Source of the DNA: an uncultured Acidobacteriaceae bacterium
GTDB taxonomy: Bacteria; Acidobacteriota; Terriglobia; Terriglobales; Acidobacteriaceae
Length of the DNA: 64,000 bases
Direction: 5' to 3'
NCBI GenBank assembly: GCA_963697175.1
Contig: CAVONC010000028.1
Span: 19,718-83,717 of the forward strand
Shown: positions 2,134 to 47,569 of the stretch, one piece after another
How positions within the stretch are numbered: position 1 is the first letter of the stretch
Layout: each line of letters begins with the position of its first letter
The notes under the pieces: generated by a model
Told to the model about the DNA's origin: nothing
The model's input: only the letters and a program-made list of their open reading frames with translations
Databases searched by the model: none
Translations under genes and position numbers: made by a program

Positions 2134-2805
2134 TCAGAAGCTATACCCGACTTCGAGGACAACGGTTGGCGTTATGTCCGGGTTGAAGACGTAGGTCGTG
2201 AACTCCATTTGCTTGAACGACACGCCAACCAGGAAACCACGCTGCGTGTCGAGCGGGGTTTCAAATGCCTTGGTGTGTTGCGCTACGCCTCCAACCTTTA
2301 GCCAGCTAAGCGGCGAGAAGGTCAATTCCGGCCAGCTGTAGAAGAAGCTGCCTGACTTCTCGGTGGTGTCGAACACGTATTCGTTCGAACTCGAAAACGC
2401 AAACTTCTTGTAGGTCAGCGAAAACTCGCAGCCCGGAGCTATGCCGGTGGTCCGCCCGAAGACCCCGCCGATCATGGGCGTGACTGCAAGCTGTAGCGTC
2501 TTGCCGGCGGTGAAGTTGTAGCCGGCCCATAGCGATCCCGTGTGCAGATTCTCGTAGTTGTAACGCGCTTCCAGGTGCAGCCACTTATGGTCGGCGGTGA
2601 GATACGGGTCAGCGTAGGAGTCGCCATCCGGCACGATGTAGCCGTCGACAGTTAACGAGTACTTCCACGCGTTGGCATTGGCCTGGTCGGCGTCGCTTGG
2701 AGTCTTCGCCGGCGGCGGGGCCGGTGCCGGCGTCTCCTGGGCCGGCAAATGACAGCTCCACAAAGTCAGCAACATCACGCCTGCGAGTTTGAGGATCGCT
2801 TTCAT
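2134..2805 (-). CDS. hypothetical outer-membrane beta-barrel protein
   Basis: I moved the start to ATG 2805 (MKAILKLAGVMLLTLWS..., a signal peptide). The sequence has an alternating beta-strand pattern and ends ...VVLEVGYSF with a terminal aromatic residue. The start overlaps the stop of the upstream gene by 4 nt. Confidence 0.55.
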   Translation of the reverse strand: MKAILKLAGVMLLTLWSCHLPAQETPAPAPPPAKTPSDADQANANAWKYSLTVDGYIVPDGDSYADPYLTADHKWLHLEARYNYENLHTGSLWAGYNFTAGKTLQLAVTPMIGGVFGRTTGIAPGCEFSLTYKKFAFSSSNEYVFDTTEKSGSFFYSWPELTFSPLSWLKVGGVAQHTKAFETPLDTQRGFLVGVSFKQMEFTTYVFNPDITPTVVLEVGYSF

Positions 2806-3494
2806 CCGCCCAGTGCAATGCAGAGCCCGATCATAATGCCGCCAATCGCGACCATCGACAACCCCCAACCCCAGGGACTGTGTCCGGCGTAGCGCCCGTA
2901 AGCGTGCCCGGCAAAGAACAGCATTACCAGGCCGATCACATCCGAGACGCGGCCGGCCACCTTGATATCGTGAGTGATCACGAAAGGTATCACGATTGGA
3001 AACGTCGAGAGAAACACCAGCAGGAAAACTCCCACCGCCCCGCGCCAATCGTCCCTGGTCAGCTTCGGTCGCGGCGGCATATCGGTCAGCTTGATCAGGT
3101 TCTGCCGCATTCCGTCGAGCGCTCCGGCAGGCAGCGCCGCGACCACAACCGGCGGCAGCTCATCCGCGATGATCTGATTGGCCTCCTCCGGTTGCGGTGC
3201 GCGGTGCAGCTTTCTGAGAATCGCGAAGTTGTGCCCGCGCACACTAACGCACGACATCAGGTACATGATCGCGTCGATCAGTCCCCAGGCCAGATTGCAG
3301 CCCAGCGCGCCAATCAACATCTCGCGCACTTGTGCGCGGTCGGCTCGCGCCACGCGCAGCGAGACCGTAAACGTGAGCACCATGATGACGCCGAACAGAA
3401 TCTCCGAGAGTCGCTCCAGCGGATCGAGCACCCGCTTGGAACTCTTGTTCTCGTCCTTCGTAACTTTGGCTGATGCAACGGCTGTTTCAGTCAT
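2802..3494 (-). CDS. VIT1/CCC1-like (Fe/Mn transporter family) membrane protein
   Basis: The start is ATG 3494 (MTETAVASAK...). LDPLERLSEILFGVIMVLTFT, GALGCNLAWGLIDAIMYLM and the C-terminal helices ending IALGG resemble VIT-family proteins. This assignment is from remembered family motifs only. Confidence 0.5.
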   Translation of the reverse strand: MTETAVASAKVTKDENKSSKRVLDPLERLSEILFGVIMVLTFTVSLRVARADRAQVREMLIGALGCNLAWGLIDAIMYLMSCVSVRGHNFAILRKLHRAPQPEEANQIIADELPPVVVAALPAGALDGMRQNLIKLTDMPPRPKLTRDDWRGAVGVFLLVFLSTFPIVIPFVITHDIKVAGRVSDVIGLVMLFFAGHAYGRYAGHSPWGWGLSMVAIGGIMIGLCIALGG

Positions 3495-3526
3495 GGTCGT
3501 GTTAAGTTTGGAACTCGCCCACCTCG

Positions 3527-3550
3527 CAAGGCAATATCTATTTTGCCTTG
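3527..3550. promoter_or_regulatory. inverted repeat CAAGGCAA-N8-TTGCCTTG, candidate operator in the VIT-operon leader
   Basis: The 8-bp arms are perfect. The repeat lies 33-56 nt upstream of ATG 3494 (minus-strand gene). It overlaps a -10-like GATATT downstream of a TTGCAT -35-like hexamer on the minus strand. The TGCCTTGG half-site recurs at 3630. Confidence 0.45.
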
Positions 3551-3584
3551 GGTATGCAAGTCCGGTCTGTGATGCACGGGCCCA

Positions 3585-3752
3585 TGAAACTTGAAACTCG
3601 AAACCTGAAACTCGAAACTGCCTTCTTGTGCCTTGGCCATGCAAATCCGGGCGGTGACGCGCGGCCGGGTTGCTCTGACAATCCGGGTTTTGAAACTTGA
3701 AACTCGAAACTCCGAAACTGCCTTTGAAACTCGAAACTCGAAACTTGAAACT
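3585..3752 (+). repeat. three blocks (3585-3619, 3691-3719, 3725-3752) of YGAAACT heptamer tandem repeats, 13 units, each block ending CTGCC
   Basis: Direct reading gives tgaaact tgaaact cgaaacc tgaaact cgaaact gcc; tgaaact tgaaact cgaaact ccgaaact gcc; tgaaact cgaaact cgaaact tgaaact gcc. Blocks 1 and 2 are each preceded by a TGCCTTGGnnATGCAArTCCGG module. Confidence 0.9.
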
Positions 3753-3842
3753 GCCTATTACGTTTCCAGCTTCCGCCCGTATATGTTGTTGACACTGGTT
3801 TTCGGGTCTCGCAGAATTGAGCCTGGCAGGAAAGGATCTGTG

Positions 3843-4682
3843 ATGCTCCTAGAAGAAGCGACCCCGGCGCCTGAACCTCGAGCGAGTAGCTTCGACAAAA
3901 GCTCCATCCTGATGTACGTCTTGCTGGCGGCTGCGGTGATTTACGTGGCTGCATCGCTGTACCTCATCTACGGGCTGAAGACAAAGCTCGTCGCACTGGA
4001 GCAGAAGCAGCAGGACATGGAAGCTTCCCAGGCGGACTTGGGCGAACGGTTGAACGCAACGTCAGCCGCATTCAAGCAGGAGCTAGCCTCCGCAACCGGC
4101 CAAACCGAACAGCAGATCGCCGCGCGCACTGCCGAGTTGGAGAAGGCGCAGAAGGCCGCTGCCGCCCGGCTCTCTGCCGAACAGCATCAGCAGGGCCAGC
4201 AGATTGCCGCGGTCAGCGGTGAGGTCAGCAGCGTGAAGACCGATGTCGGCGCAGCCAAGACCGATATTCAAAAGACGCAGACTGATTTAGCCGCGACCAA
4301 TCAGAAGCTGGAGAAAACCATTGGCGACCTCGGCCTGCAGAGCGGCCTCATCGCGCATAATTCGTCGGAGCTGGCCGAGCTGAGGCGAAAAGGCGAGCGC
4401 AACTATTACGACTTCACGCTGCAGAAGGGCGCGCGCACGCCGGTCTCGACTATAAGCCTGCAGCTGAAGAAGGTGGATGCGAAGAAGAGCCGCTTTACCG
4501 TTAACGTCATCGCCGACGATCGCACCATTGAAAAGAAGGATCGCACGGTGGGCGAGCCTTTGCAGTTCTATACCGGGCGCGATCACATGCTGTACGAGGT
4601 AGTCGTGTTCAACGCCGACAAGAACTCCATCACCGGCTATCTCTCGACCCCAAAGAACGCCCCCACCCCGGTGTCGCAGTAG
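3843..4682 (+). CDS. hypothetical membrane-anchored coiled-coil protein
   Basis: The start is ATG 3843. One TM helix (ILMYVLLAAAVIYVAASLYLIYGL) is followed by a Q/A/E/K-rich coiled coil and a beta-rich C-terminal domain. I recognise no family. Confidence 0.5.
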   Translation: MLLEEATPAPEPRASSFDKSSILMYVLLAAAVIYVAASLYLIYGLKTKLVALEQKQQDMEASQADLGERLNATSAAFKQELASATGQTEQQIAARTAELEKAQKAAAARLSAEQHQQGQQIAAVSGEVSSVKTDVGAAKTDIQKTQTDLAATNQKLEKTIGDLGLQSGLIAHNSSELAELRRKGERNYYDFTLQKGARTPVSTISLQLKKVDAKKSRFTVNVIADDRTIEKKDRTVGEPLQFYTGRDHMLYEVVVFNADKNSITGYLSTPKNAPTPVSQ

Positions 4683-4784
4683 GGCTCGCGGTGGGTGGAG
4701 CACCGCTTTCCGAGCCGGCTTCACCGGTCGCTGAAAAAGTCGTCCTGCAACCGGTTCGTAACAGGGCACGACTTCAGTGCCTGG

Positions 4785-4939
4785 GTGAGAACTAGGTTTG
4801 CAAAATCGTGGTGGAGCGTCGCGATGGTTGAACAGCCAACAAACCAGCGCCTCGGGCGCGAAATAGGAAAGCCCAGCGCTTCAGCGCTGGGTAAGTGGTA
4901 AAAGGAGTCAGAGTCCCCCGGGGACGACACGGTTCTCAC
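4785..4939 (+). mobile_element. MITE-like ~150-bp element with terminal inverted repeats GTGAGAAC...GTTCTCAC (copy 1)
   Basis: It is about 85 percent identical by eye to 14366..14503. Shared stretches include caaaatcgtggtgga.cgtcgcga, accagcgcctcgggcgcgaaataggaaagcccagcgcttcagcgct.ggt.agtggt and tccccggggacgaca.ggttctcac. It has no coding capacity. Confidence 0.7.
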
Positions 4940-5024
4940 GCAGACACTTCAGTCGTGCCGATACGCTGCCTAATTCTTATCCGAGCCGGCTTCCGCCGGC
5001 TGCTGAAAAAATCGATTGCGGAAT

Positions 5025-6893: not shown

Positions 6894-6921
6894 TGAAACA
6901 CGAAACTTGAAACTCGAAACT
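6894..6921 (+). repeat. YGAAACW heptamer array (4 units)
   Basis: The array reads tgaaaca cgaaact tgaaact cgaaact. It overlaps the polX stop codon (6920-6922) and lies 21 nt from the start of the next minus-strand gene. Confidence 0.85.
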
Positions 6922-47517: not shown

Positions 47518-47543
47518 AGTTTCAGTTTCAGTTTCGAGTTTCA
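47518..47543 (-). repeat. AGTTTCN array (reverse complement of the YGAAACT family), preceded by GGC
   Basis: The array ggc agtttc agtttc agtttcg agtttca lies 5 nt after the sdhA stop. Confidence 0.85.
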
Positions 47544-47569
47544 GGCGCGCTAGGAAGTGACAGTCTGGC

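Follow-up and report, generated by a model that had tools for sequence, protein, structure and literature searches.

Heptamer blocks between divergent VIT-like and coiled-coil genes of an Acidobacteriaceae bacterium are probably local members of a genome-wide class of intergenic repeats

Intergenic heptamer repeats were described in cyanobacteria in 1990 and, to our knowledge, have not been accounted for since then. Repeats of this kind with the unit GGGAATC are present in Xanthomonas and with the unit GGGGAYT in Nostoc, where they are intergenic and where the authors identify no function (Rehm et al. 2015; PMC4692102). TAACTGA repeats have been described for marine Beggiatoaceae as well as for some Cyanobacteria and Bacteroidetes (MacGregor 2015; PMC4679880). 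As far as their citation in PMC4692102 goes, the STRR sequences of heterocystous cyanobacteria (Calothrix PCC 7601) are also heptamers, and the same article cites work according to which many bacteria have an excess of heptamer SSRs, with polymerase slippage as the proposed cause. A further system enters the comparison through a protein family. The IVS in the 23S rRNA of Coxiella burnetii carries an S23p/PF05635 ORF and has a 28-bp terminal stem that is cut by RNase III, and this element is held to be selfish and horizontally spread (PMC4990558). PF05635, in turn, is similar to Avd, an accessory protein of DGRs (PMC10053308).

Here, we analysed a stretch of 64,000 nt (the window) from the genome of an uncultured Acidobacteriaceae bacterium (G000; assembly of 5.71 Mb, 59% G+C, 97.5%-complete). 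In this window, the gene of a VIT-like membrane protein of 230 aa (2802-3494, minus strand; start ATG at 3494) and the gene of a membrane-anchored coiled-coil protein of 279 aa (3843-4682, plus strand; ATG at 3843) are divergently oriented, and a spacer of 348 bp (3495-3842) separates their start codons. The ORF and the start of the VIT-like gene are kept in relatives; its product matches Pfam VIT1 weakly, i.e. with 25.4 bits, which is under the cut-off of 28.1 bits, and with the C-terminal 85 aa only. The Pfam search assigned the coiled-coil protein to no Pfam family. Its orthologues are present across Korobacteraceae MAGs, and the divergent VIT-like gene is retained at 15 of the 80 orthologous loci.

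A preliminary description of the spacer had listed an inverted repeat, two copies of a module and 13 heptamers, and had read them together as a regulatory cassette. All of these features are present in the sequence where they had been placed. Likewise, the idea that a higher-order unit was duplicated, rather than that single units merely slipped, is borne out, since module plus heptamer block are present twice in the spacer. What does not stand is the notion of one purpose-built device. It is probable that the blocks are unexceptional local representatives of an already known class of intergenic heptamer repeats, without being a control device dedicated to this gene pair.

Some observations concern the annotation of the locus. 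The longest ORF of the coiled-coil gene (3633-4682, plus strand) starts with a TTG at 3633 and reads through the second and third heptamer blocks (B and C, see below), but only because this frame is free of stop codons within them. In the relative G008 the extension is not kept, and an automatic annotation could therefore mis-call the coiled-coil start. A small ORF ending at TAATAG beside block C was considered and rejected, as its frame is not kept in relatives according to a reading of the alignment. Folding of the RNA of 3520-3760 provided no sign of a structured RNA on either strand: the minus strand had z = -0.66 and the plus strand z = -2.56, with the inverted repeat forming a hairpin in the predicted plus-strand fold. 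An Rfam scan of 2500-5000 returned no match in the spacer; the sole match was a full-length Acido-Lenti-1 RNA (RF01687; 4846-4891, minus strand) located just 3' of the coiled-coil gene, which scored 47.1 bits as compared to the gathering score of 37.

The 13 YGAAACT units of the spacer are arranged on the plus strand in three blocks. Block A (3585-3619) comprises five units, block B (3691-3719) four units, one of them with an extra C, and block C (3725-3752) another four; each block is followed by GCC, which yields the sequence CTGCC, and blocks B and C form a 34-nt tandem repeat. These blocks could be taken for an array specific to this locus. However, GAAACTNGAAACT with up to one mismatch has 13 matches in the window as compared to 0.17 expected, and four of the 13 fall outside the range that had been described, at 6895-6921 and 47530-47542, showing that the heptamer motif is not specific to the spacer. 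The former site is a further GAAACT block (6895-6921, plus strand), whose end overlaps the stop codon of PolX on the opposite strand. The latter belongs to a block of the form GGC(AGTTTCN)x4 (47520-47545, minus strand), which lies directly after the stop codon of a putative sdhA gene. Genome-wide, the same family is found at ~50 sites beside unrelated genes.

In G000, there are 49 GAAACNN arrays of at least three units, and their lengths peak at four units (two units, 32 arrays; three units, 15; four units, 31; five units, 3). GAAACTY/RAGTTTC is one of ~10 related unit types that coexist in this genome. Tandem Repeats Finder, applied to the whole assembly, returned 891 arrays of period 7, 14 or 21, which total ~27 kb and have a mode of four units (28 nt); by crude gene calls, 437 of 578 period-7 arrays are intergenic. 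After choice of strand and phase, the units follow a common pattern, NNYTNGC, with an information content of 5.1 bits as compared to 3.5 bits for shuffled units, and GAAACTY reads AACT[TC]GA in this frame. At the 5' end of an array on the NNYTNGC strand there is usually a purine-rich, GGCAG-like unit, that is, the CTGCC of the preliminary description seen from the opposite strand. An all-against-all BLAST comparison of the flanks of the GAAACT arrays detected no common longer element, just sporadic other short repeats. In this context, a short dispersed sequence, CCGGTGCCCCAGGTTCGGCC, was seen after heptamer arrays at two unrelated sites of G000 (C16:~27990 and C11:~80260), and array-containing spacers have other repeats of 20-40 nt in common. 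At C13:201913-202126 of G000, four GAAACT blocks of four units each succeed one another with a 62-63-nt period and an identical linker, 5' of an ORF of 175 aa. The blocks are themselves tandemly repeated there, as blocks B and C are in the spacer, but over a greater length.

To describe the placement of the arrays, each array was oriented by its NNYTNGC strand and random placement within the same intergenic gaps served as expectation; the gene calls come from a crude ORF caller, so that distances to stop codons are reliable and distances to start codons indicative only. The 5' end of the array lies 0-9 nt after a stop codon of the same strand in 115 of 301 cases, as compared to 24.1 expected (sd 4.1). 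No such excess was seen for the 3' end (48 vs 43.6 expected). There is also a weaker excess of array 5' ends just upstream of start codons on the opposite strand (35 vs 19.5), to be taken as indicative. GAAACT arrays located after genes have the form TAA-NNNCA-GTTTC, and those located before genes have the form GAAACTG-N4-18-ATG with no Shine-Dalgarno sequence. Their neighbours are functionally unrelated and encode L23, TyrRS, HslV, a ZIP transporter, SelA, glycogen synthase, TrpE, PolX, an MFS transporter, an ABC permease and the putative SdhA. The blocks in the spacer point toward the coiled-coil start, as the polarity of the family predicts. They are atypical in that they are 86 nt away from the nearest gene start, most family members being situated at gene boundaries.

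Four-unit GAAACT arrays are present in 16 of the 25 genomes of the genus (0-35 per genome) and absent from the 16 genomes that represent the sister family, and their distribution across the phylum is patchy (13 of 301 genomes). In G050, which represents another Acidobacteriota family, the control pattern CAAAGYTCAAAGYTCAAAG, i.e. the GAAACT pattern written backwards, had 80 matches, indicating that a different heptamer family has expanded there. Turnover is seen between close relatives: along ~170 kb of synteny between G008 and G000 with ~91% nucleotide identity, orthologous arrays vary in copy number and are sometimes absent, and at one orthologous site the unit type differs. Thus, the G000 arrays, which display all four properties of the intergenic heptameric repeat class, namely dispersed intergenic 7-nt units, a preference for four units, polarity and rapid change, are a new addition to this class; polarity applies here to the family as a whole, the spacer blocks being 86 nt away from the start.

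These data also bear on the idea that the arrays are plain microsatellites, which arise by in-place slippage of the polymerase, thought to favour 7-nt units, and which have neither a connection to PF05635 nor a function. Copy numbers indeed differ between relatives, and slippage is what has been proposed for over-represented heptamer SSRs in the work cited in PMC4692102. Yet, ~10 related unit types at hundreds of loci share the same GGCAG-like boundary, the length distribution peaks at four units and does not decay, the arrays have a strong polarity relative to stop codons, and they are tightly associated with PF05635 genes and their clades, as detailed below. We therefore find this explanation hardly credible.

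How does the spacer itself compare between relatives? G000 has two modules and heptamer blocks of 5 + 4 + 4 units. In G008, whose coiled-coil protein shares 95% aa identity with that of G000, there are one module, one block of four units that is orthologous to block B and has the same extra C, and a degenerate block of ~2 units at the position of block C. CAWDWG (84% aa identity) likewise has one module, five units and a degenerate remnant at the position of block C (~1.5 to ~2 units), and JASHXK (92% aa identity) has one module and no heptamers at all. Thus, the number of heptamers differs between relatives, as the preliminary description would require. Relative to G008, G000 contains an extra segment of ~85-88 nt, which corresponds to block A together with the second module copy. 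Besides G000, only G008 and CAWDWG have heptamers at loci with the same gene pair; the others, among them 12 more distant ones, have none, and their spacers measure 134-185 nt (134-182 nt for the 12 distant ones) as compared to 348 nt in G000. That is, the heptamer blocks are dispensable in close relatives. By the condition that the preliminary description itself had set, their absence from JASHXK, which is 92% identical, and from the 12 distant loci speaks against a required control element.

Elements other than the heptamers are conserved in the spacer. The module TGCCTTGGnnATGCAArTCCGG occurs in two copies with 0 mismatches (3544-3565 and 3629-3650), as compared to 0.02 expected by chance. 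When extended to 39 nt, the copies are spaced by 85 nt and only 79% identical (31/39), implying that the duplication is old or that the sequence evolves fast. Copy 1 (CAATATCTATTTTGCCTTGGnnATGCAAnTCCGG; 3531-3566, minus strand) is unique in the genome and reads TTGCAT...TAGATATTG on the minus strand. Its core of ~35 bp, CAATATCTATTTTGCCTTGGnnATGCAAnTCCGG, located beside the VIT-like gene, is kept in all members of the four-way alignment, heptamer-free JASHXK included, and this conservation makes it a candidate for a promoter of the VIT-like gene or for a site at which a regulator acts on this gene. Copy 2 (3626-3664, plus strand) is diverged and partial. It is without the ATATCTATT part and without a -10-like part, it is missing from G008, JASHXK and CAWDWG, and its distance to the various alleles is nearly uniform (31-32 of 39 positions).

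On the side of the coiled-coil gene, a sigma-70-like promoter, TTGACA-N17-CAGAAT (3789-3817, plus strand), agrees with the consensus at 10 of 12 positions and is the sole match of a sigma-70 scan in 3400-3950; it is located 3' of all repeats. Its hexamers are kept in the four-way alignment as TTGACA-N17-(C/G)AGAAT, also in relatives that have no heptamers. Just 5' of the -35 element, the block TTACGTTTCCAGCTTCCGCCCGTATATG (3758-3785, plus strand) is kept in the same alignment, and a Shine-Dalgarno-like sequence, AGGAAAGGA (3828-3836, plus strand), which is kept in relatives, precedes the ATG of the coiled-coil gene by 6 nt. The heptamer blocks end 36 nt 5' of the predicted -35 element, which makes a phase-variable promoter less likely, as the SSR of such a promoter would lie between or over the -35/-10 elements or at the 5' coding end. 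The scan called no promoter on the VIT side, the module at 3531-3566 included, and a sigma-54 reading of the module (TTGCA/GGCAC, by eye) was rejected because order and spacing of the elements are wrong. A duplicated promoter-like module is thus not supported, as copy 2 has no -10-like part and as the only sigma-70 match, at 3789-3817, lies 3' of the repeats.

The inverted repeat CAAGGCAA-N8-TTGCCTTG (3527-3550; 8-bp arms), which had been considered operator-like, is a single site in the whole genome. The closest relatives, G008, JASHXK and CAWDWG, have all lost or never had the sequence of its left arm, the repeat is perfect in G000 only, and the right arm alone belongs to the conserved module. 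Moreover, 5% of random 348-nt spacers hold an inverted repeat of comparable quality and the 64-kb window contains 49 perfect inverted repeats with arms of at least 8 bp and loops of up to 12 nt, corresponding to 0.27 per 348 nt; by both measures the repeat is unremarkable. The operator of a palindromic repressor, e.g. of the Fur type, would have its inverted repeat kept in orthologous promoters, whereas here one arm, the left, has another sequence in each of these three relatives.

Sites for regulators that bind direct repeats, such as OmpR/PhoB and SARP sites, have a period of 10-11 bp. The heptamer units of the spacer are contiguous at 7 bp and do not approach the spacing of about one helical turn that is characteristic of response regulators and SARPs. 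This spacing, together with the data above, is relevant to the concept of a dedicated divergent control region, in which a repressor would bind CAAGGCAA-N8-TTGCCTTG over the VIT promoter, the TTGCAT promoters would be duplicated and the heptamers would be cooperative binding sites of a locus-specific regulator, e.g. a metalloregulator. The features on which this concept builds are real, the module is unique in the genome and its core is kept in the four-way alignment, and the inverted repeat forms a hairpin in the plus-strand RNA fold. However, the left arm of this repeat is unconserved and comparable repeats are common; the heptamers occur genome-wide beside unrelated genes and are missing from the 92%-identical relative and 12 other loci with the same pair; their contiguous 7-bp spacing contrasts with the period of known direct-repeat regulators; and module copy 2 is devoid of the -10-like part. 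As the blocks are solo arrays of a genome-wide family, lie outside the conserved elements and are dispensable in relatives, we consider a locus-specific operator or regulator array very unlikely.

A connection of the heptamers to a protein family emerged from the cassettes around PF05635 genes. All four PF05635 genes of G000 are located between heptamer arrays, which are of the types CTAGC/CGAGC, AATTAGC, TTCGC and GTTTC/GAAAC (one each). The GTTTC/GAAAC cassette at C30:167556-168154 has the unit type of the spacer blocks. The spacer contains no PF05635 ORF and all three of its blocks are direct; because of the matching unit type, these blocks are counted as solo arrays and not as a cassette. 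When every PF05635 locus in the 25 genomes of the genus was surveyed, 87 full-length genes were obtained, most of them with inverted heptamer arrays nearby and 75 with a classifiable array type. Upstream of the gene, the cassettes have an arm of the NNYTNGC type, and downstream of it the reverse complement of this arm; most arms measure 24-31 nt. On the PF05635 protein tree, the unit type changes 14 times as compared to ~54 times for shuffled labels, and the eight GTTTC-flanked proteins form one clade (SH-aLRT 97). The GTTTC-type cassette itself occurs in at least 3-4 different genomic neighbourhoods. Four-unit GAAACT arrays number 1-35 (median 4) in the nine genomes that have a GTTTC cassette and 0-7 (median 0) in the 16 that have none (Mann-Whitney p = 4e-4, a statistic that ignores phylogeny). 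Since seven GAAACT arrays are present in G008, where a PF05635 gene of the GTTTC type is missing, arrays can persist in the absence of the cassette. Moreover, the array types GTTGYC (~45), TCAGC (~56) and AGTGGC (~29) of G000 have no matching PF05635 gene in the assembly, which is 97.5%-complete.

The GTTTC/GAAAC site of G000 (C30:167556-168154; L229 1257-1855) was also compared with the syntenic, 93%-identical site of G008 (C4:191810-192180; L233). Here, the arms are kept and the cargo is exchanged: in G008, a palindrome-rich, non-coding insert replaces the PF05635 gene between the GTTTC/GAAAC arms, and the flanks of the site are 264 nt apart as compared to 500 nt in G000. The G000 PF05635 protein is related to XCC0516 of Xanthomonas (E = 3e-23), which is the PF05635/S23p protein of PDB 2GSC. 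In supplement file 2 of PMC4692102, repeat no. 15, a 28-nt four-unit GGGAATC array, overlaps the annotated start of XCC0516 and lies 6 nt from bccP (XCC0517), and XCC0516 is entered only as 'conserved'. A published link between PF05635 and heptamers was not found in the literature searched. A DGR-like mechanism with PF05635 as an Avd-like protein was also considered and is unsupported, since G000 has no match to the reverse transcriptase family PF00078 (RVT_1).

We tentatively propose a system that spans several phyla, in which PF05635 (Avd/S23p-like) pentameric proteins with a four-helix bundle may have the heptamer arrays as their cis-elements. Each clade of these proteins would read or propagate its own 7-nt unit, the cassette, bounded by 28-nt, four-unit arms, would insert after a stop codon and ahead of the gene that follows, and solo arrays would be footprints or extra binding sites. 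The solo arrays of the type seen in the spacer may thus derive from, or be maintained by, the PF05635 cassette system.

Another reading would have the arrays act as sequence-read elements throughout the genome, bound as DNA or RNA by the clade-matched PF05635 pentamer or by a global RNA-binding protein and acting on mRNA ends, i.e. on processing, stability, termination or translation start; in the spacer, they would modulate the divergent promoters or an upstream transcript. This is consistent with their fixed polarity to transcription and the sharp distance of 0-9 nt to stop codons, with the preference for four units in the absence of G-tracts, which renders the G-quadruplex explanation of Rehm et al. 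inapplicable, and with the co-variation of PF05635 protein clade and unit type. Arrays also stay at orthologous sites while their sequence changes, and some are found directly before start codons that have no Shine-Dalgarno sequence, similar to TAACTGA in Beggiatoaceae. On the other hand, arrays are gained and lost at housekeeping genes between close species with no obvious cost, several array types have no matching protein in G000, and the spacer blocks are outside the predicted transcripts of both genes. On balance, we regard such a role as rather unlikely.

Returning to the interpretation of the blocks as a local instance of the repeat class, the following scenario may apply to the spacer. 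A native divergent promoter region of ~150-185 bp would have been inflated to 348 bp by three lineage-specific repeat blocks, which would be solo arrays of the GAAACTY/RAGTTTC type. The copy number of the blocks would change through slippage and unequal recombination, and one such event may have co-duplicated ~85 bp including part of the neighbouring native module. Most likely, functional control resides in the single module by the VIT-like gene and, for the coiled-coil gene, in the TTGACA-N17-CAGAAT promoter and its RBS. The heptamers lie upstream of both and could at most alter the spacing between the two promoters. The solo arrays presumably have little regulatory role at the spacer, although the blocks may have a modest effect on promoter spacing or on upstream contacts. 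In practical terms, this interpretation keeps the insertion of a repeat family from being mistaken for a metal-responsive operator and moves attention to the conserved elements, that is, to the single module and the promoter at 3789-3817. For the repeat class, the association with PF05635 is the lead that promises most and can be tested. The co-variation of unit type and PF05635 clade across 25 genomes of the genus, with the same adjacency in the Xanthomonas table, provides a concrete biochemical test.

Comparison with the described systems places the G000 arrays as follows. Like the IVS of Coxiella, the G000 cassettes consist of a small PF05635 ORF bounded by inverted repeats, and the 28-bp stem of the former has the length of four heptamers. 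Unlike the IVS, the cassettes are located between protein-coding genes and not in rRNA, and their arms are made of tandem heptamers, whereas the spacer has direct solo blocks only and no ORF. With the TAACTGA repeats (PMC4679880), the G000 arrays share the organization as heptamer direct repeats of 2-6 copies, the mostly intergenic location, the fixed orientation, the lack of a functional pattern among neighbours and the patchy phylogenetic distribution; some GAAACT arrays also resemble them in that a start codon with no RBS follows the array within a few nt. However, most G000 arrays abut stop codons and not start codons. In the spacer, the array does not end a few nt from the start codon in place of an RBS, as the promoter-like site and AGGAAAGGA lie between the end of the last block, at 3752, and the ATG at 3843; with 86 nt to the start and promoter and Shine-Dalgarno sequence intervening, a TAACTGA-like translational role does not fit the spacer. 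STRR sequences, as far as they are covered by the citation in PMC4692102, resemble the G000 arrays in that several families of tandem heptanucleotides coexist in the intergenic DNA of one genome, and differ in phylum and unit sequences. The repeats of Xanthomonas and Nostoc (PMC4692102) agree with those of G000 in the dispersed intergenic 7-nt units, the four-unit preference, the inverted pairs, the neighbours from all functional classes and the variation of length and sequence between close species. In contrast to one dominant unit type in Xanthomonas, ~10 coexist in G000, and the link to PF05635 genes is not remarked in PMC4692102. Furthermore, the GAAACT units are not G-rich and form no G-quadruplex; since they have no G-tracts, the G-quadruplex rationale given there for four units cannot apply, although the GAAACT units follow the same rules of length and polarity. 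If true, the PF05635 system proposed here would provide one mechanism for the STRR, the Xanthomonas/Nostoc and the TAACTGA repeats.
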